From Minisyncoccota bacterium (lineage in GTDB: Bacteria > Patescibacteriota > Minisyncoccia > Phycocordibacterales > UBA5272), in contig JBAZJW010000001.1 in assembly GCA_041651055.1 (NCBI GenBank), positions 373,325-437,324 of the forward strand: 64,000 nt of DNA, in the 5' to 3' direction. Position 1 is the stretch's first letter. Each line of letters opens with the position of its first letter. Made by a program: the position numbers and the translations under genes. Below, piece by piece: positions 2,587-60,434 of the stretch. The notes under the pieces are model-generated. The model was given only the letters and a program-made list of their open reading frames with translations. It ran no database searches and had not been told where the DNA came from.

Positions 2587-2952
2587 TTAGGACGTTCTTC
2601 GTTCTTCGTTAAATTTCTTAATAAATGCACTCAACATTTTCATAACATCTTCGAGTTTTAATGCAATCATATTAAAATCTTCATCAGCTATATACCCTAA
2701 TTTATGAGCCAACAAAAGTTGTGTTTCTACTTCTGCACCAGACCCATGTGAAATTTTTAAAAACTGAAGAAACTCCTTTTGCCCCCTTTTGCTTCCTTCA
2801 GAAATATTAGAGGGTATAGAAACTGCAGCCCTGCGAATCTGAGATGTTAAACCATATAATTCTTCTTTAGGAAAAGACTTAGTTGACTGATATATATCAA
2901 AACAAACATCAAAAGACTTTTTCCATACATCAAGATCTTTATACGAACTCAT
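2587..2952 (-). CDS. four-helix-bundle protein of the 23S rRNA intervening-sequence protein family
   Basis: 121 aa. DVWKKS...IPSNISEG...EFLQFLKISHGSGAEVETQLLLA matches the TIGR02436 / S23-ribosomal-like family. The gene is bracketed by inverted CGTTCTTCGTTAGG repeats, and its last 8 codons are encoded by the repeat. Confidence 0.7.
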   Translation of the reverse strand: MSSYKDLDVWKKSFDVCFDIYQSTKSFPKEELYGLTSQIRRAAVSIPSNISEGSKRGQKEFLQFLKISHGSGAEVETQLLLAHKLGYIADEDFNMIALKLEDVMKMLSAFIKKFNEERRTS

Positions 2953-3135
2953 GATAGCGTTAGTATATCCCCCTAACGAAGAACGACCTAACGAAGAACG
3001 GATTATCTACATTCCTCTAGTTCAAAAAATTGTTTTAGCTACGAGAAGCGACAATTTTTTGAAAGAAGGCGTACGCATAGTACGACGACTGCCAAAAATG
3101 CAGTCGCGACAAAGCAGATGAAGCAATTTTTTGAA

Positions 3136-3771
3136 CTAGAGTTCGTGGAAGAGAACAATTTCACCAAGCTTCCCATCAATATCCTTCTTCTTAATCGTAA
3201 GCTTCTCCACTGGTTCCACTTTTTCGGACCCCGCTTCTTTCAAAAAGACTGGAAGTGATTGTTCATCATAGTCCATCGGAATAATAAGCTTCGGTTCGAG
3301 TGCGACAGCGAGCTTCTGCGCGTCGTACGCATTAAGAAGGAATCCATCATGTCCAACTGGAACAAAAAGAAGATCTGTCTCATCGATGATTTCTTTGTGC
3401 TCGGAAGCGAGTGCTTGTGAGAGCGCTCCTAAGAACGTAATACGAATACCGTCTAAGGTAAGTACATAACTTGTATTCTGATATTCCTTTTCTTTTTTGC
3501 CGTCCATCAACTTGGTAGTCGTACCGAATCCTTTAATGAAAATATCCTTCACTTCATACTCTCCTGCACCACGAATAACGAAAGGAACTTTTTCTCCATG
3601 CTCTGTCTGTTCAGCGCCGTTGTAATCTGGGTGGTTCGTCGTAATGAGCGTAATATCCGCTCCATATTTGGCAACTTTCCCCTTCCCTTCTTTTGATACT
3701 GGGTTTATAGCCACGACCAAATCCCCGACTGTTAATTTGAAATGCTCTCGTCCGAAATAAGTGATAATCAT
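3136..3771 (-). CDS. MBL-fold metallo-hydrolase
   Basis: ITYFGREHFKL...PVSKEGK...HPDYNGAE...HDGF pattern typical of beta-lactamase-fold Zn hydrolases. The ORF track begins at 3813, but the likely start is MIITYFG at 3771. Confidence 0.55.
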   Translation of the reverse strand: MIITYFGREHFKLTVGDLVVAINPVSKEGKGKVAKYGADITLITTNHPDYNGAEQTEHGEKVPFVIRGAGEYEVKDIFIKGFGTTTKLMDGKKEKEYQNTSYVLTLDGIRITFLGALSQALASEHKEIIDETDLLFVPVGHDGFLLNAYDAQKLAVALEPKLIIPMDYDEQSLPVFLKEAGSEKVEPVEKLTIKKKDIDGKLGEIVLFHEL

Positions 3772-3791
3772 AGATCGCAGTCTACCAAAAT

Positions 3792-3826
3792 TAGTCAAAA
3801 GAAAAAAGCCCACTTGCGCGGGCTTT
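3792..3826 (-). terminator. intrinsic terminator for the 3852..4181 gene
   Basis: On the minus strand, AAAGCCCGCGCAAGTGGGCTTT hairpin followed by TTTTTTCTTTT. Confidence 0.7.
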
Positions 3827-3851
3827 ATTGAACACTGACGAGGTGCAGGTG

Positions 3852-4181
3852 TCAGTGTTTCGCAAAGCAGGATGTCACCTGCTTTGTAACCCGATAGGTC
3901 TCGCGACCATATCGGCCTCTCCGATCAACGGACAGTTTGACAGCCTTCCCTGTCGTTGCAACGCATTCCTGGTTGTTAGCGTGGTAGAAACGGACACCCT
4001 TGATGGTTGCATAGTTTGACTCGCAACCGTCTGAGGTGAAACCGTTAACCACACCACCCTTTTCCTCCACCCACAAACAAGCGTTAGTGAAGTGAAGATT
4101 TGCCGGAGCTTGGAAGTACCAGGCATTAGCACTCGATGCCGCAACAACGAGAACCATCACAAGTGAATTTTTCAGCTTCAT
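3852..4181 (-). CDS. secreted cysteine-rich small protein. Signal peptide MKLKNSLVMVLVVAASSANA; mature part ~88 aa with 4 Cys.
   Basis: Likely start at MKLKNS (4179-4181). Hydrophobic h-region ending in ANA-W. Lies in a ~55% GC island. No family recognised. Confidence 0.5.
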   Translation of the reverse strand: MKLKNSLVMVLVVAASSANAWYFQAPANLHFTNACLWVEEKGGVVNGFTSDGCESNYATIKGVRFYHANNQECVATTGKAVKLSVDRRGRYGRETYRVTKQVTSCFAKH

Positions 4182-4192
4182 GATAGCCCCCA

Positions 4193-4528
4193 TTAGCGAC
4201 GAGGTGTCGCAATGACCTCGTAGAAGCTCCCCGTCTCCGTCTTGCAACGAAAGACCTTGAAGAGCGACGCGTCGAGAGTGTTCACAACCTCAGTCACAGT
4301 GGAAGTGTATTTCCCACCACCGAGGTACAACGTATCTCCGACGGTGACACCAGGGAAATCGTTGATTTGTGCCGTGAGAACCCCCAAGCTATGCGCTTGG
4401 GTACTCGGATGGTAGGTCCGAGAGATCACGGCCGTCATACCTTTGGCGTGACGGTGTACTGGGTTTTTAACGATGCCCCTCGCATCGGGCAACACTTCCA
4501 GTGTTGCCATACGGTTACCGAAGACCAT
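4193..4528 (-). CDS. hypothetical protein in the GC-rich island
   Basis: 111-aa ORF with an AGGAG Shine-Dalgarno 7 nt upstream. Co-directional with, and 11 nt upstream of, the secreted protein gene. Confidence 0.45.
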   Translation of the reverse strand: MVFGNRMATLEVLPDARGIVKNPVHRHAKGMTAVISRTYHPSTQAHSLGVLTAQINDFPGVTVGDTLYLGGGKYTSTVTEVVNTLDASLFKVFRCKTETGSFYEVIATPRR

Positions 4529-5035: not shown

Positions 5036-5061
5036 AACCAAAACCAACAAAGGAGACCGCC

Positions 5062-5262
5062 ATGAAGGCGTTCAAAGCTATTTTCCAGATCGGAATTAAC
5101 GGACTTTTTGTCTTTCTCTTCTACAAATGGGTGATAGAGCCTTTATGGCAATTCTCGCCACGGCTGACCGTTCTTTTTGCGCTTGCAACACTCTTCGTAT
5201 TCTTGCTTGCAACGAAAGAAGACGAAAGTCCTCACAACGACAACGCGCGGGCCGGACAGTAA
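5062..5262 (+). CDS. small membrane protein, 2 predicted TM helices
   Basis: 66 aa starting MKAFKAIFQIGINGLFVFLFY. Preceded by AACAAAGGAGACCGCC-ATG. Confidence 0.45.
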   Translation: MKAFKAIFQIGINGLFVFLFYKWVIEPLWQFSPRLTVLFALATLFVFLLATKEDESPHNDNARAGQ

Positions 5263-6756: not shown

Positions 6757-6846
6757 AGCTGTTAGCTGTTAGCTGTTAGCTGTTAGCTGTTAGCTGTTAG
6801 CTGTTAGCTGTTAGCTGTTAGCTGTTAGCTGTTAGCTGTTAGCTGT
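6757..6846. repeat. tandem 9-mer repeat (AGCTGTTAG), ~10 copies
   Basis: Direct reading. It overlaps the last 5 codons and the stop codon of pth. Confidence 0.95.
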
Positions 6847-7376: not shown

Positions 7377-7471
7377 ACTCGCAGTCTAGCATTAGCTAGA
7401 CTGCGAGTAAATTTTTAATTTTTAGTTCTTAATTTTTAATGAAACACGTAATGCAGGTATCGGTATTTACC

Positions 7472-7500
7472 TAAAAACTAAAAACTGGAAACTAAAAACT
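7472..7500 (+). promoter_or_regulatory. A-rich AAAACT box, copy 1
   Basis: TAAAAACTAAAAACTGGAAACTAAAAACT. It sits 32 nt before a TATACT -10 (7533-7538) and the lepB ATG (7548). Confidence 0.5.
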
Positions 7501-12483: not shown

Positions 12484-13752
12484 ATGGCAAAAGTAAATCC
12501 AGAAATTGAAAGCTTCGCTCGTATTAAGGTCATCGGTATCGGTGGTTCTGGTAAAGGTGCACTCAATCATATGATCAATTCAAAACTCCAAGGAGTTGAA
12601 TTCATCGCGATGAACACAGACACACAAGATCTTCATCACTCTCTCGCTGAGAAGAAAATTCATATCGGTAAAAATCTCACCAAAGGACTTGGAGCAGGAA
12701 TGGACCCGGAAATTGGAAAACGTTCTGCTGAAGAAACTCGTGAGGAAGTCCAAGATGTTATTAAAGGGGCAGATATGGTATTCATTGCAAGCGGTATGGG
12801 TGGTGGAACGGGAACAGGCGCCGCGCCTGTGATCGCATCTATTGCAAAGAACGAAGGCATTCTTACTATCGGTGTCGTGACCAAACCATTCTTCTTTGAA
12901 GGAGCGTCCCGTATGAAGCTTGCAGAACGCGGTCTTGAAGAACTCGAGAAGGAAGTGGATGCACTTATTGTTATTCCAAACGATCGACTTCTTTCTGTCA
13001 TTGATAAAAACACATCTGTGAAGCAGGCTTTTGAAATGTGTGATGAAGTTTTGAAACAAGCAGTTGAAGGTATTTCTGATATTATTCGTACAGCCGGAAC
13101 AATCAACCTCGACTTTGCTGATATTAAGAGAATTTTGAAAGACTCAGGAACGGCTCTTATGGGTGTAGGGCGAGGCATGGGTGAAAATCGCGCACGTGAA
13201 GCAGCTACGGCAGCTGTAAATTCCCCTCTTCTTGATGTTTCTATTCATGGAGCAAAGGGTGTACTCTTTGCTATCTACGGAGCAGAAGATCTTGGAATGC
13301 TCGAAGTACAAGAAGCTGCGAAGATTATTACAGAATCAGTTGATAAGGATGCAAAGATTATTTTTGGTATCGCAACAGATCCAACTCTTAAAAAGGATGA
13401 GATCAAGGTGACTGTTATTGCAACAGGATTTCCAAGTGGATTTTCTACACGCGGACATTCTTCCCCTTCATCTCCTGTTATTGAAACACGACGAGAGACA
13501 GAAGCCCTTCACCCAGAACCACGTATCGAAAAGACAGAAACAATTCGTGAGGCAGTAAAGGAAGCCCGTGAATCACATGTCGCACCGACAGATAGACGTA
13601 TTGATCTTGAAATAGGAAATGAAGAAACAAAAGAAGACGAAGATGCGAAGAAACCAAAAGTAGAAGCAAAGAAAACAGTATTTAAATTTGATGACGATGA
13701 AGAGGATGATGAATGGGAAGCATTGCCACCATTCCTCAGGCGAAAGAAGTAA
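12484..13752 (+). CDS. ftsZ: cell division GTPase FtsZ
   Basis: GGGTGTGAAPVIA tubulin signature. Long E/K-rich C-terminal linker. Confidence 0.9.
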   Translation: MAKVNPEIESFARIKVIGIGGSGKGALNHMINSKLQGVEFIAMNTDTQDLHHSLAEKKIHIGKNLTKGLGAGMDPEIGKRSAEETREEVQDVIKGADMVFIASGMGGGTGTGAAPVIASIAKNEGILTIGVVTKPFFFEGASRMKLAERGLEELEKEVDALIVIPNDRLLSVIDKNTSVKQAFEMCDEVLKQAVEGISDIIRTAGTINLDFADIKRILKDSGTALMGVGRGMGENRAREAATAAVNSPLLDVSIHGAKGVLFAIYGAEDLGMLEVQEAAKIITESVDKDAKIIFGIATDPTLKKDEIKVTVIATGFPSGFSTRGHSSPSSPVIETRRETEALHPEPRIEKTETIREAVKEARESHVAPTDRRIDLEIGNEETKEDEDAKKPKVEAKKTVFKFDDDEEDDEWEALPPFLRRKK

Positions 13753-13885
13753 AACAAATAAAATTACTTCATCTGCTTCGTTGCACAAGATTTTTGTTCC
13801 CGCGAAGTACTATTCGTACATCTTGGTCACAAAAATCTTGTGCGCCTTGCATCTAAAGCAATTTTCTTAGTTTTGGTAATTAAAA

Positions 13886-13914
13886 AACCGAGTCGTACGA
13901 CTCGGTTTTTTTAT
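13886..13914 (+). terminator. intrinsic terminator after ftsZ
   Basis: AACCGAGTCGTACGACTCGGTT perfect hairpin followed by TTTTTTTATT. Confidence 0.8.
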
Positions 13915-13989
13915 TACTTCTTTCGGCATCATCAGGTGAATTGATAATTTAAAATTTTTAATTTTTATTAAACACTACCAAAAACGATG

Positions 13990-14006: not shown

Positions 14007-14966
14007 ATGCCCACCACATCCACTCTCTCCTCTTCCCTCTCACCTCTTGCCTACGATTTAATAATCGTAGGAGGTGGTCCCGCTGGTACTGCTGCGGCCG
14101 TCTATGCTGCTCGTAAGCAATTACGCTCGCTTCTCATTGTAAAAGAATGGGGAGGTCAATCAACGGTCTCAGATGATATTCAAAACTGGATTGGCACACC
14201 ACACATTTCTGGTGCGAATCTCGCAGCATCATTCAAGTCTCATATCGATGAATACAGAGGTGATATTCTTTCTGTTGCTGAAGGTTCTGGTGTCACCGCT
14301 ATTACAGGCACAGACGGCGACTTCACCGTCACTCTAGAAAACGGAAACGAACACAAAGGAAAGACCGTGATCATTGCCACAGGATCATCTCGTAGGAAAT
14401 TAGACATACCTGGTGCAGATATTTTCGAAAACAAAGGCATCACCTATTGTGCTTCATGCGATGGGCCACTTTTTTCTGGCATGGATGTAGTTGTTGTTGG
14501 TGGAGGAAATGCAGGCTTTGAATCTGCAGCTCAACTTCTCGCTTACTGTAAATCCGTCACACTTCTTTCACGAAGTGAGCCTCGGGCAGACGCCATTACC
14601 GTTGCAAAATTAAAGCAGCGTGAAAACTTTACCCTCGTTACCAATGCCGTTCCCAAGAATGTGCAGGGTTCAGTCTTTGTAGAATCTATTACCTACACCA
14701 AGTCAGAAACAAACGAAGACGTCACACTCCCTGTAGCTGCTGTCTTTGTCGAAATAGGACAACTTCCAGCCACAGACTTCGCGAAAGCTATTGTGAATCG
14801 TGATGCGACGAATCACATCATCATCAATCCACGTACACAAGAAACCTCTACTGTTGGCATCTGGTCAGCCGGTGACTGTACGGACGTGCTCTATCATCAA
14901 AACAATATCGCAGCTGGAGATGCTGTGCGAGCCTTAGAAGATATCTACCTCCATATTCACGCCTAA
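14007..14966 (+). CDS. trxB: thioredoxin-disulfide reductase-like FAD/NAD(P)-dependent oxidoreductase
   Basis: YDLIIVGGGPAGTAAAVYAAR FAD-binding Rossmann fold, CASC redox-active disulfide, VVVVGGGNAGFESA NADPH site. The ORF track starts at TTG 13998. Confidence 0.7.
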   Translation: MPTTSTLSSSLSPLAYDLIIVGGGPAGTAAAVYAARKQLRSLLIVKEWGGQSTVSDDIQNWIGTPHISGANLAASFKSHIDEYRGDILSVAEGSGVTAITGTDGDFTVTLENGNEHKGKTVIIATGSSRRKLDIPGADIFENKGITYCASCDGPLFSGMDVVVVGGGNAGFESAAQLLAYCKSVTLLSRSEPRADAITVAKLKQRENFTLVTNAVPKNVQGSVFVESITYTKSETNEDVTLPVAAVFVEIGQLPATDFAKAIVNRDATNHIIINPRTQETSTVGIWSAGDCTDVLYHQNNIAAGDAVRALEDIYLHIHA

Positions 14967-15023
14967 GTCGTTAGTCGTTAGTCGTTAGTCGTTAGTCGTT
15001 AGTCGTTAGTCGTTAGTCGTTAG
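14967..15023. repeat. tandem 8-mer repeat (GTCGTTAG), ~7 copies
   Basis: Direct reading. It begins immediately after the trxB stop codon. Confidence 0.95.
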
Positions 15024-15100
15024 GTAAATTGTAATGCGGGATAATTTGCTTTGCAAATTATCCCGCATTACCTAACGAAGAACACCCTAACGTCCTAACT
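15021..15100 (+). repeat. 80-bp hairpin module, copy 1
   Basis: Perfect stem GTAATGCGGGATAATTTG-CTTTG-CAAATTATCCCGCATTAC, followed by CCTAACGAAGAAC-ACCCTAACGTCCTAACT. Confidence 0.9.
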
Positions 15101-15141: not shown

Positions 15142-16884
15142 ATGCAAAAATATCTCTCTCTTATTGTTCGTCTCTGGAAAATGCTTAAACCTTTCCACAA
15201 AGACTTCTACTTACAGCTCTTCTCAACAATTATTCAACAAGGAATAACCGTATACGTTATTTACCTGACAGCAAAAGTTCTCGACAATCTCATTCATAAA
15301 AATTTTGAGGTAGCTCTTACTTTAGTGGGTATTACCACTACAATTTCTCTTGCGAAAGTCATCATTGCTTACTTCACCGAAATACATGCCCAGAACAATC
15401 TAGACTTTGCAATACAACAACACCTTCAAGAATATTCATTTAAGAAAATATTCAAATTAAACATTTCTCAATACACAGAAGATCACTCAGCAGTTAAACA
15501 GCAAGTTATAGACCGCGGTGAAGCAGCGATAGACACTATCATCTCTACGCTCATACTAAACCTTCTCCCGACAATAACCCAAGTGCTCTTTGCTATTATT
15601 GCTATTTCATTTTACTCAAAAATAGTTGGTATATGGACCTTTACCTCGCTTCTTATTGTGGTTTTGTGGAGTAACTACTTTGCGAAATATCATAGACCAT
15701 TCATAAAACAAGATATTGAAAATGGTGACAGACAAAAGAGAGTGCGAACAGAATCATTCCAACATCTAAGCCTCATTCGAACCCTTGGTGCCGAAGACTT
15801 CTATCTTGAAAAGTACCTCAACAGTAGACAAAAGGTTATGGACTACAAAAAGTTTGTGTGGAACATTGCCATAAAACATGGCCACAGAAGGTATGGATTC
15901 TTCACGGCATCCAGATCCTTTAGCACCGTCATTATTATTTACTTGGCATACATGGGGACAATAACCGTCGGATCAATCTACGCTGTTTGGGCGTATATCA
16001 GCGAAGCCAATAGTCAGATATTTAGTATTATTCAAGCAATACGACAAATGCCGCTTCGCTTTAGTGAGCTCGAAAAGTACCTAGACATTGTCGACAAAGA
16101 AGCTCTCTTTGACGAGCACGGAAAGAAAACAAAACTTGTTGGTGATATTGTTTTAAACAAGCTCACCTTCAAGTATCCACAGGGAAATATCGAGCTCTTC
16201 AATAATCTTTCTCTCACCATCCCCTACGGTAAAAAAGTTGCTTTCGTAGGTTCATCTGGTTCTGGAAAGTCCACCATTGTTAAATTGCTTCTTCGTATAT
16301 ATACCTACGATGAAGGCTCTATCACTATCGGTGGAGTGGAACTAAAAAACATAGAGGGTAAATATCTTCGAGAGAGTATTGGGTATGTTGAGCAGCACGT
16401 AGATCTCTTCGATGAAACCATACGAGAAAATATTTTAGTCGGTATAAAAAATAAAGACAAAAAAAGTGCAGAGAGAAGGTTGGGTGAAGTTGCAGAACAA
16501 TCTCGCATTTCTGAATTCTACCATCGCCTCGGTAAAGAAAAGTTCGACACGTACATCGGTGAACGTGGTGTGAAATTATCAGGTGGCGAACGTCAGCGTA
16601 TCGGTATCGCACGCGCAATTATCAAGAATCCAGACATCCTCATCTTCGACGAAGCAACGGCATCACTGGACGCAGAGAATGAAGCAAAGGTAATGGAAGC
16701 TATCAACGACGTCTCTCATGGAAAAACATCCATCATTATTGCCCATAGACTCTCTACCGTACGAGATGCTGATAAAATCATCGTCATGGATAAAGGGCAC
16801 GTTGTTGGTGAAGGAACTCACGATGAGTTGATGCAATCGTGTGACATATACCAAAATCTCGTCGCACACCAGTTATCAAGTTAA
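15142..16884 (+). CDS. ABC transporter, fused permease/ATP-binding protein (exporter type)
   Basis: Six N-terminal TM helices, then Walker A GSSGSGKST, ABC signature LSGGERQRIGIARA and Walker B ILIFDEATASLD. Confidence 0.8.
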   Translation: MQKYLSLIVRLWKMLKPFHKDFYLQLFSTIIQQGITVYVIYLTAKVLDNLIHKNFEVALTLVGITTTISLAKVIIAYFTEIHAQNNLDFAIQQHLQEYSFKKIFKLNISQYTEDHSAVKQQVIDRGEAAIDTIISTLILNLLPTITQVLFAIIAISFYSKIVGIWTFTSLLIVVLWSNYFAKYHRPFIKQDIENGDRQKRVRTESFQHLSLIRTLGAEDFYLEKYLNSRQKVMDYKKFVWNIAIKHGHRRYGFFTASRSFSTVIIIYLAYMGTITVGSIYAVWAYISEANSQIFSIIQAIRQMPLRFSELEKYLDIVDKEALFDEHGKKTKLVGDIVLNKLTFKYPQGNIELFNNLSLTIPYGKKVAFVGSSGSGKSTIVKLLLRIYTYDEGSITIGGVELKNIEGKYLRESIGYVEQHVDLFDETIRENILVGIKNKDKKSAERRLGEVAEQSRISEFYHRLGKEKFDTYIGERGVKLSGGERQRIGIARAIIKNPDILIFDEATASLDAENEAKVMEAINDVSHGKTSIIIAHRLSTVRDADKIIVMDKGHVVGEGTHDELMQSCDIYQNLVAHQLSS

Positions 16885-16888
16885 ATGT

Positions 16889-16976
16889 TAGTCGTTAGGT
16901 AAACTGTAATGCGGGATAATTTGCTTTGCAAATTATCCCGCATTACCTAACGAAGAACGCCCTAACGTCCTAACTT
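16889..16976 (+). repeat. 80-bp hairpin module, copy 2
   Basis: Near-identical to 15021-15100 and in the same orientation, so the two copies flank the ABC gene as direct repeats. Confidence 0.9.
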
Positions 16977-17306: not shown

Positions 17307-17386
17307 AACGACCAGTCTATAAAGTTAAAAGCAAAAAGTCCATAAAGGGATAAGGGCGGCCACTTCGTGGCCGCCCGTGTTCTCTT

Positions 17387-17413
17387 AAAACTAAAAACTG
17401 GAAACTAAAAACT
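17387..17413 (+). promoter_or_regulatory. A-rich AAAACT box, copy 2
   Basis: AAAACTAAAAACTGGAAACTAAAAACT, 23 nt upstream of TGCTATACT (17437-17445), which lies 7 nt before ATG 17453. Confidence 0.5.
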
Positions 17414-18715: not shown

Positions 18716-18770
18716 GGTTTACCCTAAAGTATCGCTATGGTTTCTTTAGATTTTTCGTGTATATTTTTCT

Positions 18771-18798
18771 AAAAACTAAAAACTGGAAACTAAAAACT
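18771..18798 (+). promoter_or_regulatory. A-rich AAAACT box, copy 3
   Basis: Same 27-mer. It lies 39 nt upstream of TGATATACT (18838-18846), which is 6 nt before ATG 18853. Confidence 0.5.
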
Positions 18799-18852: not shown

Positions 18853-20367
18853 ATGCCTCCAAATGACCAAGAAAAGATAGGACTTTTCATCAAGAAACTC
18901 CGTGAAGAAAAAGGAATGACCCAAGGTGAGCTTGCCAAAGCTCTCAAGACTTCCCAGCCCGCAGTGGCCCGTATTGAGTCTGGAAACCAAAATTTGACCA
19001 TAGAGCACATCGAAAAGATAAGCGAGGTACTTGGGCAACAAATCGTAACATTAAACGATACTATTGATTTTAAGGTTCATGGTGGCCGAAAATTATCCGG
19101 CTCTATCACCACCAACACCTCCAAAAATGGCGCAGTTAACATGATGGTCGCTGCCCTTGTAAACTCGGGCACTACCGTACTCCGCGACATTCCCCATATC
19201 GAAGAAGTGTACCGCTACAAAGAGCTTCTCGAGAGTTTGGGTGTGAAGATACGCTGGACACACGATGACACAGCACTTTCTATTACACCACCAAAGAAAC
19301 TTCTGTTTTCAAAAATGAACAAAGACGTCGCTACACGCATCCGGTCATTTACCTTTGCTGGTGCATTCATTCACTTCAGTGATCAGTTCACCCTCCCTCA
19401 TTCCGGTGGATGTAAAATGGGAGAACGCACCGTCGCGTCACATAAGTACGCGCTCGACTATCTCGGCGTTTCAATAGACACCAAAGAAAATCATTACGCT
19501 ATTTCCTACAAAAAATTACATACTGGAACTATTCCTTTATACGAATCATCAGATACAGGTGCCATCACTGCACTCCTCGCGGCATCTCGTATCGAAGGTA
19601 CGACGACAATTATGTTTGCTCCGCCGAACTACCAAGTGCAAGATGTGTGTTTCTTACTTGAACATTTTGGTGTAAAGATCGAAGGTATCGGAAGTACAAC
19701 GCTTATCGTACATGGCAAGAAAGACATTAATGTCGATGTCGAACATTACAATAGTGAAGACCCTATCGAAAGTATGTTTTTCTTGGCTGCCGGAATTGTT
19801 ACAGGATCGAAACTCACCATCACACGTTGTCCGATTGAATTCCTTACTCTTGAAATAGAAAAATTAAAGCGCATGGGATTGAAATATTCTCTTTCAAAGA
19901 AGTACCTCGCGAAGAATGAAAGAACATCTCTCGTTGATATTACTATTTCACCTTCGAAGTTAACCGCACCGACAGACAAAATCCACGCGCAACCTTTCCC
20001 TGGAATCAACAATGATAATCTCCCCTTCTTCGTACCAATTGCATGTTTTGCAGAAGGTCAAACTCTCATCCATGATTGGACATGGGAAAATCGCGCCATC
20101 TATTTTACAGAATTGAATCGCCTCGGCGCTGATATCAAATTACTCGACCCACACCGAGCCCTTGTGACGAGTGTGAAGAAATTACGCGGTGCACAAATCG
20201 TCTCCCCTCCTGCGCTTCGTCCGACCGCTATTATTTTGATCGCTATGCTTGCCGCTGAAGGCACATCATTACTTCGCAATGTGTACTCCATCAAGCGCGG
20301 CTACGCAGACATTGCTGAACGATTAAATTCTATCGGCGCGAAGATTGAAGTGTTAAGAGGAGTGTAA
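18853..20367 (+). CDS. murA: UDP-N-acetylglucosamine 1-carboxyvinyltransferase with an N-terminal XRE-type HTH domain (fusion)
   Basis: Residues 1-60: LRKLREEKGMTQGELAKALKTSQPAVARIESGNQNLTIEHIEKISEVLG (HTH_XRE). From residue 75: KVHGGRKLSGSITTNTSKNGAVNMMVAALV...HSGGCKMGERTV (MurA/EPSP-synthase fold with the active-site Cys). Confidence 0.75.
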   Translation: MPPNDQEKIGLFIKKLREEKGMTQGELAKALKTSQPAVARIESGNQNLTIEHIEKISEVLGQQIVTLNDTIDFKVHGGRKLSGSITTNTSKNGAVNMMVAALVNSGTTVLRDIPHIEEVYRYKELLESLGVKIRWTHDDTALSITPPKKLLFSKMNKDVATRIRSFTFAGAFIHFSDQFTLPHSGGCKMGERTVASHKYALDYLGVSIDTKENHYAISYKKLHTGTIPLYESSDTGAITALLAASRIEGTTTIMFAPPNYQVQDVCFLLEHFGVKIEGIGSTTLIVHGKKDINVDVEHYNSEDPIESMFFLAAGIVTGSKLTITRCPIEFLTLEIEKLKRMGLKYSLSKKYLAKNERTSLVDITISPSKLTAPTDKIHAQPFPGINNDNLPFFVPIACFAEGQTLIHDWTWENRAIYFTELNRLGADIKLLDPHRALVTSVKKLRGAQIVSPPALRPTAIILIAMLAAEGTSLLRNVYSIKRGYADIAERLNSIGAKIEVLRGV

Positions 20368-21565: not shown

Positions 21566-21594
21566 CTTTTTAGTTTCCAGTTTTTAGTTTTCAG
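21566..21594 (-). promoter_or_regulatory. A-rich AAAACT box, copy 4 (minus orientation)
   Basis: Reverse complement of the 27-mer. On the minus strand it is followed after 10 nt by TATACT, then 5 nt, then the NUDIX ATG. A partial extra copy lies at 21631-21647. Confidence 0.5.
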
Positions 21595-21636
21595 AAGATA
21601 CAAATACAAGGCGAGGCCTTGTATTAAAAATAGTTT

Positions 21637-22688: not shown

Positions 22689-22910
22689 TTTGATCCATTG
22701 CGTACAATACACAGCAGGAGGAGTCGGTCACCACTAGGGTATTTTTGTTTTGCACTTCGTGTTCACAAAAATACTCCTAGTCCTGACCACGGGAAAAACC
22801 GACAAAATTATTTAATAGAGGAGTCGGTCACAAAATCAGCTCCTTTGTCGCAGATGATTTTCCGACCCGTATTCGACTCCTCTCGAAAGCCAAGCAGTTG
22901 GCTTTCTTAT

Positions 22911-22970
22911 CGCCCACTCATATACAAAAAGAAACATCGTATGATGTTTCTTTTTGTATATGAGTGGGCG
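22911..22970. terminator. 60-bp perfect palindrome; terminator hairpin immediately 3' of tRNA-Val
   Basis: CGCCCACTCATATACAAAAAGAAACATC-GTAT-GATGTTTCTTTTTGTATATGAGTGGGCG. One arm includes the tRNA acceptor 3' strand, and T-runs flank both sides. Confidence 0.6.
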
Positions 22971-23037
22971 ATAGAGGAGTCGAACCTCTGACATCCACAA
23001 CGTCAATGTGGCGCTCTACCAACTGAGCTAACCGCCC
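22965..23037 (-). tRNA. tRNA-Val (anticodon GAC)
   Basis: Reverse complement GGGCGGTTAGCTCAGTTGGTAGAGCGCCACATTGACGTTGTGGATGTCAGAGGTTCGACTCCTCTATCGCCCA folds as a cloverleaf with anticodon loop TTGACGT. Confidence 0.85.
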
Positions 23038-23118: not shown

Positions 23119-23202
23119 GCATCTTCGCGCAATTACACGTCTCGTGTCCTTCGTCTGGTGACTACGGACATCTTCGGTGCTCTTCGCACCTCGAGCTAAC
23201 CG
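23119..23202. repeat. 84-bp exact repeat, copy 1 (partner at 53875-53958)
   Basis: CATCTTCGCGCAATTACACGTCTCGTGTCCTTCGTCTGGTGACTACGGACATCTTCGGTGCTCTTCGCACCTCGAGCTAACCGC is identical at both loci. It ends in a tRNA 5'-end fragment (GCGGTTAGCTCGAG on the minus strand). Confidence 0.95.
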
Positions 23203-23341
23203 CCCCTCCATCATCTCTAACTGTCCTAATACACTAAACTATACCATACAAAAGGAGAGGTCCAAAAGTTGAAAGAAACGACTTTTTGTGGTAGTATATT
23301 TTTTACTTGGCCACCATCTTTTCTGATATGGACAAGAAGAC

Positions 23342-29174: not shown

Positions 29175-29204
29175 AGTTTTTAGTTTCCAGTTTTTAGTTT
29201 TTAG
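29175..29204 (-). promoter_or_regulatory. A-rich AAAACT box, copy 5 (minus orientation, no downstream -10 found)
   Basis: Reverse complement of the 27-mer, directly after the tsaD stop and facing back into tsaD. No TATACT follows on the minus strand. Confidence 0.4.
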
Positions 29205-29222
29205 AAAAATACACAGACTAAT

Positions 29223-29270: not shown

Positions 29271-29742
29271 TATGATACAGAGACGAAAGAAAAGCGATAT
29301 CTTACGATATCGCTTTTCTTCTGCCTCGCACCCAATTGTGGTGAGCGTGGCATGCTCCAAAGATAAATGCCTTATGTGAGCGCGGTCGCCCACCGCAATT
29401 GCTTGCGAGGGGGTTCCACAGGATCCAGTTTACAATTTTTAGTTTCAAGTTACAAGTAAGCTAGTCCATAAAGTCCTTAAGGTTTGTAAAGTCTACAAAG
29501 TAATACAAATACTTTAAGCGCCATTTCAGGTCTAAAATTGTACCGAATACGAGGCGGTGAATATTTTTTCGACTAAGACGTACAAGAGTACGTTGCATGG
29601 AGAAAAAAATATTCACCAACAAAGTAGGCGGTATGATTTTAGACCTGAAACGTAAATGGCCATCTTTCGATGACCATTTGCGCAGGCATTCATTTATCTT
29701 GTAAGCACACCGTTTACGCGGCTCACGTATATGAGTGTACTA

Positions 29743-31962
29743 CTACTTTTTACCTGGAGCAAGTAGTTGCTTGATATACGCATCTACCTGAGCACTGTAT
29801 TCTGGATTCGTACGCTTCACTTCTGCAAGAAGCTCGAGAGCAAGAGGTATCTGTCCTGTTGTTACGACGGCGTTTAAGATGTCGCCATCAAACGGTACAG
29901 TAAGTCCACTTTCTTTAATGTGCGCACGAGCATCTTTGAATGAACCCGCATATACAGCTGTTAGGACATACCACTTTTGTGCATCAGGATAGATTGGCTG
30001 AAGATCATACACTTCACGTGCGAGTGCGTACGCTTCCGTATACTTACGTTGCATCAAGTACGAACGAATAAGATCAAAAGATATGAGCTGTTTTTTCGGA
30101 GCAATTACGTGCGCCATTCCGATGACCTGTTCTCCAGAAATCGCATCTCCAATACCGTTGTAAAACATTCCATAAATAGTAAGCATGCGCACATCTTCTT
30201 TGTGTGCAGAAAGTGATGCTGTCACATCATCACGAACGGCTTTGATGAAATTATTAATCGCCTGAGTACCTGCTTGCTTGTCAGCAGCTGGTGTTTCTGC
30301 TGGAATATTCACCTGAGAAAGACGCACACCCATTTGAAGAAACTGTTCGCGTGATTCTTCGCTACCAAGTGTATGGAGAGCGATGGCACTTGTGAACGCC
30401 TCCTGCTGTATTTTTATCGCATCCGCAAACGGCATCTTTTGCACAAGCTGACCAACGCTCATCCCTTGAATGAGAAGTGTATTCACAAGGTATGGACGAT
30501 AGTTAACGAAGTATAGTGTCACGAGGAGAACGACACCAACAATTGGCATCCAGATATAATTCATCTGTTCTTCTGTTACAATCCCTTTACTGTGATGCGC
30601 CACCTGTCCACCTTTTGTTCTCATCACGATGTATGCAAGTAATGCGAAGAAAAGAATGTAACTTGTTAAGTTATCAAACACGAAAATGTTGTGAACAAAG
30701 TATCCAACAAGCGCACCTGTAAGGATTGCTTTTTCACGAGTAGGCATATCGTGTTTCTTACTTCTCCACATAAGCGAAAGTGCTACGACGTACAGCGACA
30801 AGTATGAGAGTAGGCCAAGGATTCCAGCTGCAACAAGCCAGTCGAAGAACACGTCATGAGAACGGTCATACCATGGCTCGAGATTCCACATCTTTTCAGG
30901 CATAAACTTTCGAGCATAAATATAACTAAAATTATCTTGTCCGTATCCGAGTATTGGTCGTTCAAGAAACGCTTCATAACTAATCGTCCAAATAGAAAGA
31001 CGACTCATGCTTGTAAGTTCTGTTGGTGAAATACTTGCGAGACGAGCAAGTGTCGGTGTTGATTGTACAAATGAACTATTCTTAAATGTTACGAGTGATC
31101 CCACGAGAATAACAACAGCAACAAGCACTCCGGCAAAAACTTTTCGTGCATGCCCTTTTTCTCGCCATGCAATAAGCCCAATCGTTACCATTACACCTGC
31201 GACGAGTCCGATCATCGTCCCTCTCGTACCAGAGTAAAAGAGTGCAATCAAGTTAAGTGCGATAAGTACCGGATATCCCCATGCACGTTTTGCATTCGGT
31301 GTCTGTGACCAGAGTAGTGCTGCAATAAATGCGAACATGAGACAATAAATAGCAAAGTATGCGGAGTTTCCAATCGTTGCATCGAGTCGGTTTTCACTTT
31401 GGTGAATCGGGAATCGTGCAGAGAACCATGCTCCAAGTTCTGGGAGTTTTTGTGCAAAGATGTATCCTTTCGCTCCGAACATTTGTCCGTAACCATAAAT
31501 AAGCACGAGAAGGTTTGAGGCAAAGAATACCTTAAACATTTTCTGCCAGTCCTTAAGTGTTGGGAGCATTGCCGTAAGTACAAAGAAATATGCAAAGAAG
31601 TGAATGTGGCCAACGAATCCTTCCATGCGTTCATAATTACTCCACATACTTCTTTCTCGATCGACACCGAAAATATCCGCAAGCAAAAGTACAACCATGA
31701 AAATCGCATACGCAATAGTCAGTGGTGACTTCTTGAGATTCGGACGGTAGGACACATCACGCAGTGCGAGCAGTGCCCATCCAGCAAATGCAATTTCTAC
31801 AAGAACTCTAAAAACGAGATTCTTGCCAGAAATAAATGGGAAGTAAAGTCCCGATGTTCCCCAGTTGAGAAAATCAAAAGTTCCTCCGTCGGCTACATAG
31901 AGCGCCAAAAATGGAATAAGTGCAAGCGAAACCCAAACTATTTTTTTAATAATACTTTGCAT
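29743..31962 (-). CDS. O-antigen-ligase-like polytopic membrane protein with a C-terminal TPR/soluble domain
   Basis: 739 aa with more than 12 TM helices, including a Wzy_C-like segment (YSGTRGTMIGLVAGVMV), then a ~250-aa hydrophilic tail with TPR-like repeats. Confidence 0.5.
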   Translation of the reverse strand: MQSIIKKIVWVSLALIPFLALYVADGGTFDFLNWGTSGLYFPFISGKNLVFRVLVEIAFAGWALLALRDVSYRPNLKKSPLTIAYAIFMVVLLLADIFGVDRERSMWSNYERMEGFVGHIHFFAYFFVLTAMLPTLKDWQKMFKVFFASNLLVLIYGYGQMFGAKGYIFAQKLPELGAWFSARFPIHQSENRLDATIGNSAYFAIYCLMFAFIAALLWSQTPNAKRAWGYPVLIALNLIALFYSGTRGTMIGLVAGVMVTIGLIAWREKGHARKVFAGVLVAVVILVGSLVTFKNSSFVQSTPTLARLASISPTELTSMSRLSIWTISYEAFLERPILGYGQDNFSYIYARKFMPEKMWNLEPWYDRSHDVFFDWLVAAGILGLLSYLSLYVVALSLMWRSKKHDMPTREKAILTGALVGYFVHNIFVFDNLTSYILFFALLAYIVMRTKGGQVAHHSKGIVTEEQMNYIWMPIVGVVLLVTLYFVNYRPYLVNTLLIQGMSVGQLVQKMPFADAIKIQQEAFTSAIALHTLGSEESREQFLQMGVRLSQVNIPAETPAADKQAGTQAINNFIKAVRDDVTASLSAHKEDVRMLTIYGMFYNGIGDAISGEQVIGMAHVIAPKKQLISFDLIRSYLMQRKYTEAYALAREVYDLQPIYPDAQKWYVLTAVYAGSFKDARAHIKESGLTVPFDGDILNAVVTTGQIPLALELLAEVKRTNPEYSAQVDAYIKQLLAPGKK

Positions 31963-50334: not shown

Positions 50335-50364
50335 AGTTTTTAGTTTCCAGTTTTTAGTTTTCAG
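50335..50364 (-). promoter_or_regulatory. A-rich AAAACT box, copy 6 (minus orientation)
   Basis: Reverse complement of the 27-mer, 5 nt upstream of TATACT, which lies 10 nt before ATG 50311. Confidence 0.5.
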
Positions 50365-50559
50365 AGAATGCGAAAAGCGAAATCGGCAGATTTCGCTTTT
50401 AGTTTCCGCATTTCCTAACGAAGAACGACCAACGATTAACGAGTAACGAGAGCCTTCTATAATAGTCAGGAATATTCAATAACTTAATATCTAATATTCA
50501 AATCAAATGCATTGCATTTCTTTGAATATTGGTTATTAAAACATTGAATATTGTTGTTA

Positions 50560-53404: not shown

Positions 53405-53607
53405 TTGGTGGTGCGCGGTCCTGGATTCTCCGACAAGTTTCGTCTCGTCGCCACTCAACGAACTCGCCGGCCGCCGCTCGTGGTTTTTCTTGCTAGAAAA
53501 ACATCACTGCGCCCTTTCGAATCCAGACGAAACATGTGCAGACATGTTTCTGACCGCGCACTAAAAAGAAAAACCCCTCCTCTGTCGAGGGGGATTTTTC
53601 TTTTTAG

Positions 53608-53680
53608 TGCGCGGTCCTGGATTCGAACCAGGGACCGCTCGAGTATCAGTCGAGTGCTCTACCAGCTGAGCTAACCGCGC
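53608..53680 (-). tRNA. tRNA-Ile (anticodon GAT)
   Basis: Reverse complement GCGCGGTTAGCTCAGCTGGTAGAGCACTCGACTGATACTCGAGCGGTCCCTGGTTCGAATCCAGGACCGCGCA; anticodon loop CTGATAC. A terminator hairpin (CCCCTC..GAGGGGG plus T-run) follows at 53560-53607. Confidence 0.85.
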
Positions 53681-53874: not shown

Positions 53875-53958
53875 CATCTTCGCGCAATTACACGTCTCGT
53901 GTCCTTCGTCTGGTGACTACGGACATCTTCGGTGCTCTTCGCACCTCGAGCTAACCGC
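53875..53958. repeat. 84-bp exact repeat, copy 2 (partner at 23119-23202)
   Basis: Identical sequence, in the same relative position upstream of a minus-strand tRNA. Confidence 0.95.
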
Positions 53959-54799: not shown

Positions 54800-56633
<1,834 letters not shown>

Positions 56634-56944
56634 ATTTAATAGAGTGTGACAAAAGAAAAAACAAAAAAATGCACAATGTTTATGTAATGTATTGTGAAGC
56701 GTCACTTCAGTTCTTTTTTATGTTTAGAATTTCTAAAACAAAAAAGGAGCTGAACAGCTTCTATTAAAATTTCAAATGACTACAATTACTGCTCACTGCT
56801 TATGAGTAAGAAGTAGGACTATTCTATACTGTGCAGCACGTAAAGTCAAGCTTCTAATCAACAACACAAGCCATAACAGACAAACTTTTACAATATCCAC
56901 AGATATGCTTGCCATTTAAGGCTATTTTGATTAAACTCGTAGCA

Positions 56945-59307: not shown

Positions 59308-59561
59308 AATGTTATTATACAATAATAACCAACAGCCCACAAAAGCGCGACCCTTCGGGTCGCGCTTTTGTATTGTATCTGTATTCTAAAAAGTCAGAAA
59401 TTGTTTTAGCTACAAGGCACAGAAAATTTTTACGACTAAGGCGTACACCTAGTACGACGCATGTCTAGGAGCGAAGAGCGACGAAGAGTTCTGGGGCTAG
59501 CAAGCAAAAGAACACGAAAAATTTTCTGTAACGCAGTAGATGAAATAATTTATGACTTTTT

Positions 59562-60434
59562 TTACTTTTTACTGTTCCAGACGGTTAGTAGTGGTGAAGC
59601 CACAAAGATTGAAGAATATGTTCCCACAATCATTCCCACAATGAGTGTTAAAGTAAACCACTTCGTCATTTCAGGACCAAAGAAGAAGAGAGCGAGAAGC
59701 GCAAGAACCACAGTCACCGATGTGTTAATCGACCGTGTGAAAGTCTGCCTCAAACTCATTCCCACAATCTCTTCGAAGGAAGATTTCTTACTGCCATTCT
59801 TTAAGTTCTCACGAATTCTATCGAACACCACAATTTTATCCGAAATAGAAATACCGATAATAGTAAGGAGCGCAATAATAAACAATGTATCTATCTCTGC
59901 TCCATACTTGTGCGAGAGAAGTACATACACCCCTGTCGGCACCGTGATGTCATGAAGCAGTGTCACCATAGCAATCACTCCATATTTCCACGATGAAACC
60001 GGCTCTGACACTTCACGGAACGAGAATGCGATGAAAGCGAGAATTGCCAAGACTACGACAATAAGTGCAATGATGGCTTTCTTTGTCATTTCAGCACCAA
60101 GTGTTGGGCCGACAGTGTTTACCTGTGTGAACTGGAATGGAGTCCTATTGTTCACATTTCCAAGTGAAGAAATAATAGGACTGATGGCTTCGTATGTCTT
60201 TGCAGATACGAAACGATATGTTGTGTCTCCTGTTTTGTAGAGAGTGATGCCGTCTGCTTCAAATGATGAAGAAGAAAGTGCAGGAACTTCTTTCTCATAC
60301 GTAATATCAACAACAGATCCTCCTGTAAAATCGATGCCACGTTTTATTCCATATGAAGACATAAGGAATAAAGAACCGATAACAAGGGCGATTGAGAGAC
60401 CGATGAAGAATGTTTTATATTTAAGGATGTACAT
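59562..60434 (-). CDS. secF: protein translocase subunit SecF
   Basis: GIDFTGGSVVDITYEKE SecF N-terminus; 6 TM helices. Confidence 0.8.
   Translation of the reverse strand: MYILKYKTFFIGLSIALVIGSLFLMSSYGIKRGIDFTGGSVVDITYEKEVPALSSSSFEADGITLYKTGDTTYRFVSAKTYEAISPIISSLGNVNNRTPFQFTQVNTVGPTLGAEMTKKAIIALIVVVLAILAFIAFSFREVSEPVSSWKYGVIAMVTLLHDITVPTGVYVLLSHKYGAEIDTLFIIALLTIIGISISDKIVVFDRIRENLKNGSKKSSFEEIVGMSLRQTFTRSINTSVTVVLALLALFFFGPEMTKWFTLTLIVGMIVGTYSSIFVASPLLTVWNSKK

Follow-up and report, generated by a model that had tools for sequence, protein, structure and literature searches.

Does the inverted repeat at positions 3015-3141 of a 64,000-nucleotide stretch of Minisyncoccota DNA (contig JBAZJW010000001.1; the stretch is referred to below as the window) represent a small transposon or a structured RNA? 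The repeat overlaps the end of a gene encoding an MBL-fold protein, and the initial annotation left both readings open, describing a candidate miniature inverted-repeat transposable element (MITE) with 18-bp terminal inverted repeats or, alternatively, a structured small RNA. The structured-RNA half of that proposal fits the evidence better, and a classical MITE is not supported. The 18-bp arms themselves are real and perfect, and begin at 3015, one base earlier than proposed: read directly from the sequence, CTCTAGTTCAAAAAATTG occupies 3015-3032 and its exact reverse complement 3124-3141, and an inverted-repeat search lengthens the arms to 26 nt with 88% complementarity (3015-3040 and 3116-3141). 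The element, which we call c1, folds at -51 kcal/mol on the plus strand and at -45.9 kcal/mol on the minus strand (z = -6.7). Its neighbor on the minus strand (3136..3813) is a Lactamase_B_3 gene (Pfam PF13483, E = 1.9e-26), and the outermost pairs of the basal helix of c1, P1, are built from the last codon and TAG stop of that gene, whose relatives encode proteins that end in the same way (...HE[L/M]-stop). The supposed terminal inverted repeats are the P1 basal helix and not transposon ends.

A family of hairpin elements in the window and in other Patescibacteria

Four copies of the family are present in the 64-kb window, c1, c2 and c3 on the plus strand and c4 on the minus strand (Table 1), and they score E = 1e-14 to 1e-25 with a covariance model. 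Identity among them is only 53-65%, and the folds of c1, c2 and c3 have z scores of -5.7 to -11.6 against dinucleotide shuffles. The core AAGGCGTACNNNNAGTACGAC, which can be written as the pattern AAGGCGTAC-N4-AGTACGAC, is found at 3066-3086 and a second time at 59438-59458. A copy of the core had been placed at 59375-59465; it is real, and the earlier interval had caught only the 5' half of c2, whose true span is 59387-59563. A partial core at 29571 had also been pointed out, and CGACTAAGACGTACAAGAGTACG is indeed found there, inside the inverted repeat 29524-29550/29624-29650 of c3. The imperfect inverted repeat of about 140 bp described around it was confirmed as well; its outer pairing extends to 29519-29660 and borrows part of the conserved terminator of a Wzy_C/TPR gene (29743..31962, minus strand). 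Neither a second covariance model nor a filter-free search found a fifth copy in the window, and the weak covariance-model matches there proved on inspection to be ordinary symmetric hairpins. The apical domain of c2 is longer by about 50 nt (59459-59515), with GAGCGA, AGAGCGA and CGAAGAG repeats in the added segment; either a nested insertion or a duplication at the site may explain it.

The window's own relatives share about 74-79% amino acid identity with it. A strict pattern search found the family in four species-representative assemblies labeled Candidatus Saccharibacteria and in two metagenome contigs, and gave no match in viral contigs. Further copies were reached through contigs that carry homologs of the neighbor proteins FtsZ and SSB, and the covariance model places copies in about 12 further Patescibacteria assemblies labeled Saccharibacteria (loci outside the window are designated by L numbers below). 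Rfam release 15 gave no match at gathering thresholds across the whole window and two loci and, in E-value mode around c1 and c3, nothing up to E = 10. We found no description of the family in the literature on noncoding RNAs and inverted repeats of Saccharibacteria, Patescibacteria or the candidate phyla radiation (CPR). As judged from sequence comparison, it appears to be a previously undescribed family in a lineage of Patescibacteria. Some divergent relatives were also seen: a "mini" form after tsaD that lacks the apical P3 domain (L013, 19109-19192, minus strand), and two GC-richer forms after an MBL-fold gene (L010, 546-639, plus strand) and after ybeY (L007, 8575-8693, minus strand), the latter with a 15-bp P1 arm that is the last 15 nt of the gene.

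Helices vary and stay paired, and loops are conserved

The aligned copies share a rod-like architecture that runs, from base to apex, through P1, P1b, a G.A mismatch, P1c, an internal loop, P2 and an apical domain that contains the hairpin P3. P1b reads UUGUUUUA/UGAARYAA and includes two conserved G-U pairs, and P1c is CUAC/GUAG. The internal loop is purine rich, with RAGG on its 5' side and RACAAAG on its 3' side, which gives the family consensus TAC-RAGG across P1c and the 5' side of the loop, and a G-C pair within it is unchanged in all 16 copies. P3 is CGUAC-loop-GUACG and covaries to UGUAG/CUACA and ACGUAG/CUACGU in L017 and L019. An A-tract and a U-tract (AAAAUUG ... CAAUUUU) flank the conserved core. 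The outer part of P1 is entirely different in sequence among c1, c2, c3, L016, L017, L021 and L023, with the arms still paired; the sole P1 subtype that is shared unites c4 with L002-L005.

The covariation statistics refer to the final alignment of 16 copies. Standard pairs fill 92.5% of the paired cells in comparison with 72.7% after shuffling, a level reached in 0 of 500 shuffles, and with 39-48% when partners are slid. Covariation across copies was one of the tests that the initial annotation had suggested, and it is present: compensatory changes on both sides occur at 34 of the 44 base pairs, including 19 of 23 in the basal helix (helix 1) and 11 of 13 in P2. Thus, the helices vary in sequence yet stay paired, and the loops are conserved. 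An alternative already raised at the outset, that these are unrelated hairpins of chance similarity, might be entertained because the AT-rich genome is full of long hairpins. That alternative has a negligible probability in the face of the covariance-model E values, the z scores and the shuffles, the same architecture in 12 other assemblies, and a core that was expected 0.05 times by chance and found twice.

The fold belongs to the strand antisense to the gene it abuts

The model strand gives the more stable fold in every one of the 19 copies examined, with margins of 0.8 to 25 kcal/mol; for c4, the values are -52.4 kcal/mol on the model strand and -39.0 kcal/mol on the opposite strand. The noncanonical pairs are distributed in the same direction. 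Across all 16 copies, the paired cells contain 46 G-U and 11 A-C, and 14 G.A and 5 C.U; for the eight orthologs at the ssb site, the numbers are 29 G-U and 2 A-C, and 10 G.A and 2 C.U. The G-U to A-C ratio expected from base composition alone, calculated from counts, is approximately 1.2 to 1. Unpaired positions are 78% purine and tandem G.A mismatches are present. In a control of 64 element-free structured segments downstream of genes, the sense strand was more stable in 39 and the antisense strand in 25, a slight lean in the opposite direction from a noisy comparison that relies on crude open reading frame (ORF) calls. Conserved G-U pairs, tandem G.A mismatches and loops rich in A typically mark a fold that functions as a single strand.

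The position of the elements also follows a rule. In 19 of 21 copies, the model strand has its 3' end over the stop codon of a convergent gene or no more than 10 nt from it. Eleven different genes are involved: the MBL-fold gene (c1), secF (c2) and ftsZ (c4) in the window and, elsewhere, rpsR, ssb, ndk, an LDcluster4 gene, tsaD, ybeY and two unnamed genes. c2 adjoins the TAA stop of secF (59562..60434, minus strand; Pfam SecD_SecF_C), and c4 directly follows the stop codon of ftsZ (12484..13752, plus strand; Pfam Tubulin/FtsZ_C). The two exceptions are c3, which is 83 nt from the stop of the Wzy_C gene and beyond that gene's terminator, and L001b, a weak match that seems to lie inside the end of an ORF. 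The L001 match (4289-4410, minus strand; 37-39 bits) apparently falls within the last ~145 nt of ORF 3733..4434, whose stop is 3 nt ahead of the start of the next gene; an in-frame insertion or a stop-codon shift may be responsible. Orientation follows the local gene, with c4 on the minus strand and c1, c2 and c3 on the plus strand, and the rule therefore concerns the transcription or translation of the neighbor and not the direction of replication. Taken together, selection on the fold acts on a single strand, which is antisense to the gene whose stop the 3' end of the element touches.

At four loci, the order is gene, element and then the gene's own GC-rich terminator, and in eight assemblies the rpsF-ssb-rpsR operon has an element within it, between ssb and rpsR, 36-95 nt before the rpsR start codon. 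This arrangement is what would be expected of a hairpin in the sense mRNA, in the 3' untranslated region (UTR) or between cistrons, acting as a message stabilizer, as an RNase III site or as a modulator of termination or ribosome release. The repetitive extragenic palindromic (REP) sequences of Escherichia coli and the intercistronic hairpins of phage T7 act as sense-mRNA elements. The element begins at the stop codon, the sense strand is certainly transcribed, and P1, P2 and P3 pair on that strand also. However, in each of the 19 copies examined, folding is less favorable on the sense strand, with differences of up to 25 kcal/mol. On that strand, the G-U pairs become C.A (46 C.A against 11 G-U overall, 29 against 2 at the ssb site), the tandem G.A mismatches become C.U and the loops are 78% pyrimidine, a pattern opposite to selection on a sense-strand helix. 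We regard a sense-mRNA element as improbable.

Even less probable is an elaborate intrinsic terminator, possibly a polar one that acts strongly on transcription coming in through the gene's 3' end and weakly in the sense direction. The A-tract and U-tract around the core are in keeping with a terminator, relatives carry a plain GC-rich terminator at the MBL site where the window has c1, and strand asymmetry is the sole route to a direction-specific hairpin. Against this, the U-tract lacks an adjacent GC-rich stem, P1 is not followed by a U-tract, ordinary terminators adjoin the element at four loci, and intrinsic termination would need neither P3 nor the conserved purine-rich loops. Terminator scans flag the neighboring hairpins 13882-13911 and 59339-59371 and not the element, whose base is AU rich and whose P1 is followed by coding sequence.

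Insertion, empty sites and persistence

Filled and empty orthologous sites, another of the checks that the initial annotation had called for, are both found among related genomes. The ftsZ site is empty in L007/L008, where the same terminator comes immediately after the stop codon, and in L013 and L015, which have a plain palindromic terminator instead. The ssb-rpsR spacer is just 9-12 nt in L019 and L020, and the MBL and Wzy sites of L007 and L013 have plain terminators and no element. In the window, the final codons of ftsZ (13741-13752) have their complement at 13914-13925, beyond the terminator, and in silico deletion of 13753-13879 rebuilds a palindromic terminator of 29 bp with a folding energy of -39.1 kcal/mol. 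c4 is a clean insertion into the palindromic ftsZ terminator, flanked by a duplicated TAA/GTAA. Its P1 subtype also occurs in copies behind ssb and rpsR in other genomes. The family therefore reaches new sites and is occasionally mobile.

Consistent termini, by contrast, were not borne out: the outer ends vary from copy to copy. For target-site duplications, c4 has its TAA/GTAA, and across 15 copies a search for a fixed 9-bp duplication gave a best 9-mer flank match of 5.87, compared with 5.44 in mismatched-locus controls. The gene tables, which cover the surroundings of the copies, list no transposase or recombinase beside any copy. The family is small, noncoding and multicopy, with filled and empty sites, as is the case for MITEs, and it lacks sequence-conserved terminal repeats; a classical MITE bounded by conserved terminal inverted repeats is not supported.

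Persistence is best seen at the ssb site. The copies there, in eight assemblies, are 53-99% identical (mean 64%), and all have the fold and the G-U pairs. Because they share the flank landmarks TAAAAC..TCAG and AATTAAAAC, they are orthologous and derive from one insertion. Retention of the fold and G-U pairs despite such divergence indicates purifying selection at the level of the locus and not the decay of a dead transposon.

These observations bear on the possibility that the family is selfish, nonautonomous mobile DNA of a MITE-, REPIN- or PATE-like kind, in which the folded single-stranded DNA would be used in trans by a structure-reading enzyme, such as an HUH or tyrosine recombinase acting as at IS200/IS605 ends or integron attC sites. 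The host would then tolerate only insertions after a stop codon that leave the weaker hairpin in the mRNA. The empty orthologous sites (ftsZ in L007, L013 and L015, ssb-rpsR in L019 and L020, MBL in L007 and L013) are what such an element would leave, as is c4, which splits a palindromic terminator that is restored by excision together with one TAA/GTAA and which has the P1 subtype found at a different gene in L002-L005. In addition, TAA or TAG often recurs just past the far arm, a tendency noted by eye and not scored against a control, other hairpin families use the same kind of slot, and no promoter was found for the folding strand. On the other hand, the outermost ends, which should be the most conserved if recognized by a transposase, are variable, no consistent target-site duplication is evident, and no transposase or recombinase is seen next to the copies in the gene tables. 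Orientation tracks the local gene, and the inversion of c4 relative to c1-c3 within 64 kb is contrary to single-stranded DNA transposition linked to replication. Orthologous copies at fixed sites retain their G-U pairs and loops over deep divergence, as a dead insertion would not. We consider selfish mobile DNA rather unlikely. Folding of single-stranded DNA linked to replication was rejected on the inversion of c4, which follows local gene direction.

A putative antisense RNA at the 3' end of the facing gene

The reading that we favor, with a probability of roughly 45%, is that the fold is used as a putative antisense RNA at the 3' end of the facing gene, as an RNase III substrate, a protein scaffold or a barrier to antisense transcription. 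The working molecule would most likely be an antisense-strand transcript. With more than 22 bp, its long helix would lend itself to cleavage by RNase III, and the purine-rich loops and tandem G.A pairs resemble a protein-binding scaffold. Such an RNA would work where the facing gene ends; it could pair with, or process, the 3' end of the mRNA, or it could halt transcription running into the gene in the wrong direction.

Several observations weigh against an antisense RNA. No consistent promoter was found on the model strand by a promoter scan and a -35/-10 scan of 13 upstream regions, and at the ssb site the sequences upstream show no conservation, with only 36-95 nt between the element and the start codon of the next gene. 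A bidirectional-looking terminator lies 5-30 nt upstream on the model strand at c2, at c4, at the mini copy of L013 and at the L019 copy, and read-through from outside would be blocked at these four loci. There is no U-tract after P1, and the RNA would therefore lack an obvious 3' end. Transcription is certain for the sense strand, which forms part of a 3' UTR or an operon spacer; the antisense strand may not be transcribed. There is thus a conflict, in which structure points to the antisense strand and context to the sense strand. In a single case, that of L001a, the element lies between convergent genes, 13 nt after the stop of a gene on the same strand, and could be transcribed as the 3' UTR of that gene. 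A selfish mobile element would also account for the c4 insertion and for the occurrence of the element in some genomes and not in others. Finally, the genomes concerned are rich in long perfect palindromes, and an arm-matching process at the DNA level could inflate the apparent covariation, although it would not create conserved G-U or G.A pairs.

In a more ambitious version of the antisense RNA proposal, the family would be a new type of antisense RNA module with a defined structure, placed at the stop codons of many housekeeping genes in ultrasmall CPR genomes and spreading by structure-dependent insertion targeted to stop codons. It would serve as a 3'-end guard, through processing of or pairing with the facing mRNA or by halting antisense transcription, by means of a protein that reads the G.A-rich loops. 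We offer this version tentatively, as less likely than not.

To our knowledge, almost no regulatory RNAs or repeat families have been described in the tiny, streamlined genomes of CPR/Patescibacteria. The family nevertheless spends 125 nt behind ftsZ, ssb, secF, ndk and other genes, in a fixed orientation and with an RNA-like fold that is kept over deep divergence. A fixed orientation and a deeply conserved RNA-like fold imply one of two things, a functional system of antisense RNAs or a mobile element recognized by its structure, and each of these would provide a handle on how these organisms organize the 3' ends of genes. The locus is also a caution against reading inverted repeats as transposon ends, since the repeat here is a helix made in part of the neighbor's stop codon.

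Features of the elements and other repeats in the window

The coordinates of the elements, of the parts of c1 and of the adjoining terminators are collected in Table 1.

Table 1. Hairpin elements of the window, parts of c1 and adjoining gene ends. Folding energies are for the model strand versus the opposite strand.
Feature	Position	Strand	Basis or remark
c1, whole hairpin element	3015..3141	+	fold; covariance model, 112-113 bits
c1, 5' strand of basal helix P1 + P1b	3015..3037	+	pairs with 3119-3141; contains the 18-nt arm 3015-3032
c1, P1c 5' strand CTAC (3039-3042) and purine-rich internal loop GAGAA (3043-3047)	3039..3047	+	alignments
c1, helix P2 (3048-3060 with 3094-3107) around the apical domain	3048..3107	+	fold and alignment
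c1, apical domain: AAGG lead-in and hairpin P3 (CGTAC 3070-3074/GTACG 3080-3084)		+	
c1, internal loop 3' side (GACAAA) and P1c 3' strand (GCAG)	3108..3117	+	alignments
c1, 3' strand of P1 + P1b	3119..3141	+	contains the arm 3124-3141 and conserved GATGAAGCAATTTT
Last codon (CTC) and TAG stop of the MBL-fold gene	3136..3141	-	inside the outer P1 pairs of c1
c4	13749..13875	-	118-127 bits; absent from the initial annotation, found with a covariance model from the other copies
127-nt insertion (c4 plus one TAA/GTAA)	13753..13879	.	deletion rebuilds the 29-bp palindromic ftsZ terminator
ftsZ intrinsic, bidirectional-looking terminator and outer arm copying the last ftsZ codons	13876..13925	+	
c3	29524..29651	+	118-121 bits; fold -67.1 versus -57.2 kcal/mol
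GC-rich terminator hairpin past c2 as seen from secF	59339..59371	.	terminator scan; order gene, element, terminator
c2	59387..59563	+	77-82 bits; fold -55.2 versus -45.5 kcal/mol

Other long hairpins were also noted. Very long, perfect terminator hairpins with arms of 26-31 bp are found at 22899-22983 and 53552-53616, and also after ftsZ in L013 and L015. In these hairpins, the far arm repeats, in inverted form, the final bases of the gene upstream; the sequences copied in this way include the last ftsZ codons and the 3' acceptor ends of tRNA-Val and tRNA-Ile. It seems that palindromes of this lineage expand outward across the ends of genes. The ssb-rpsR spacer of L002 (1450-1632) is filled by another long hairpin family, whose arms consist of GCAGAC repeats and whose sense strand is the more stable one (-59.5 versus -50.9 kcal/mol).

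Tandem heptamer-type repeats, such as (AGCTGTT)n, (AGTCGTT)n and runs resembling TAGTTAGG or TTAGGGAC, occupy spacers at 6757-6846 and 14966-15021 and, in L005, L016, L017 and L023, the region upstream of rpsR. A 96-nt repeat with 95% identity (15005-15100 and 16880-16975) flanks an ORF of 580 amino acids (15142..16884) and contains a perfect 19-bp hairpin (GTAATGCGGGATAATTTGC) together with the motif CCTAACGAAGAAC. The same motif is found at 2972-3008, between c1 and the start of a 23S-rRNA-IVP/bAvd-like gene (2587..2952), and at 50406-50435. The recurring intergenic motif AGTTTTTAGTTTCCAGTTTTTAGTTTT has at least six copies in both orientations, on one strand at 7464-7500, 17377-17413 and 18762-18798, and on the other at 21567-21596, 29177-29207 and 50337-50367. 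An exact 84-bp repeat (23120-23203 and 53875-53958) lies ~80-200 bp from tRNA-Val (22964-23037) and tRNA-Ile (53607-53680).

Between the tsaD terminator and the Wzy_C gene, a conserved block at ~29325-29430 (GCCTCGCACCCAATTGTGGTGAGCGTGGCATGCTCC...GCGAGG), also seen in L007 (~19830-19930) and L013 (~19220-19320), looks like an unannotated structured RNA; it has no Rfam match up to E = 1. The 16S rRNA match at 54893-56640 (minus strand) is 1748 nt long, compared with 1533 nt for the model, and therefore carries insertions. The 3' end of this Rfam match reads GGATTAATTCAATGTG where GGATCACCTCCTT is usual, and AAGGAG-N8-ATG motifs exist in the window, for example, at 5040-5064.

Comparison with known systems

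Several candidate identities were rejected. A small ORF was ruled out by eye, with AUG-AAR-stop present in some copies only and not preceded by a ribosome-binding site. Also excluded by eye were a standard K-turn, where the nonbulged strand has four extra bases, a Cas9 repeat for GTTTTAGCTAC, for which there is no array, cas gene or tracr partner, and a sarcin-ricin loop, to which UACGAGA bears a resemblance. Identity with tigRNA arrays was likewise rejected; those are described as tandem units processed to 36-nt RNAs (PMC12045711).

Integron attC sites also directly follow the stop of an ORF, are 57-141 nt in length and have a variable sequence with a conserved structure, a folding strand that is antisense to the ORF, and extrahelical and mismatched bases. 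In contrast, the R''/R' core (RYYYAAC/GTTRRRY) is not found by eye at the ends of the family described here, and since the ends do not fit the core-site consensus, attC identity was ruled out. There is no integrase or cassette array here, the neighbors (ftsZ, ssb and secF) are housekeeping genes that are in place without the element too, and the apical domain is conserved here but variable in attC sites.

With the structured RNAs of Rfam, the family shares covariation, G-U pairs, tandem G.A mismatches and A-rich loops, without matching any Rfam family. The cis-antisense RNAs, such as GadY/gadX and the type I antitoxins RatA and SR4, are likewise encoded opposite the 3' end of the target gene, where duplex formation with the end of the mRNA and recruitment of RNase III are expected. 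Those RNAs are single-locus systems with mapped promoters and terminators, whereas here a family with a common scaffold lies behind many housekeeping genes, with no evident promoter or terminator.

REP, BIME and REPIN sequences are extragenic palindromes just after stop codons, form strand-asymmetric hairpins and affect mRNA 3' ends, in which they resemble the present family. They are thought to be mobilized as folded single strands, and have RAYT transposases as partners. No RAYT gene was seen here among the genes around the copies. REPs are 20-40 nt long, with a conserved 5' tetranucleotide GT[AG]G and hundreds of near-identical copies in both orientations, in contrast to the 125 nt, three helices and conserved internal loops of the present family.

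The Correia elements of Neisseria and the enterobacterial ERIC/IRU sequences are MITE-like palindromic repeats that are transcribed into hairpin RNA. Like the present family, they are noncoding, imperfect palindromes of ~100-150 bp, multicopy and located in intergenic or 3' regions, with insertions that are polymorphic between relatives and accompanied by TA-type duplications, and in both cases the long hairpin would be an RNase III substrate. The Correia and ERIC/IRU elements, however, have conserved terminal repeats and near-identical copies. In the family described here, it is the ends that differ, with no consistent duplication found, and the loops that are conserved, together with compensatory changes in the helices and a fixed orientation to the neighboring gene.

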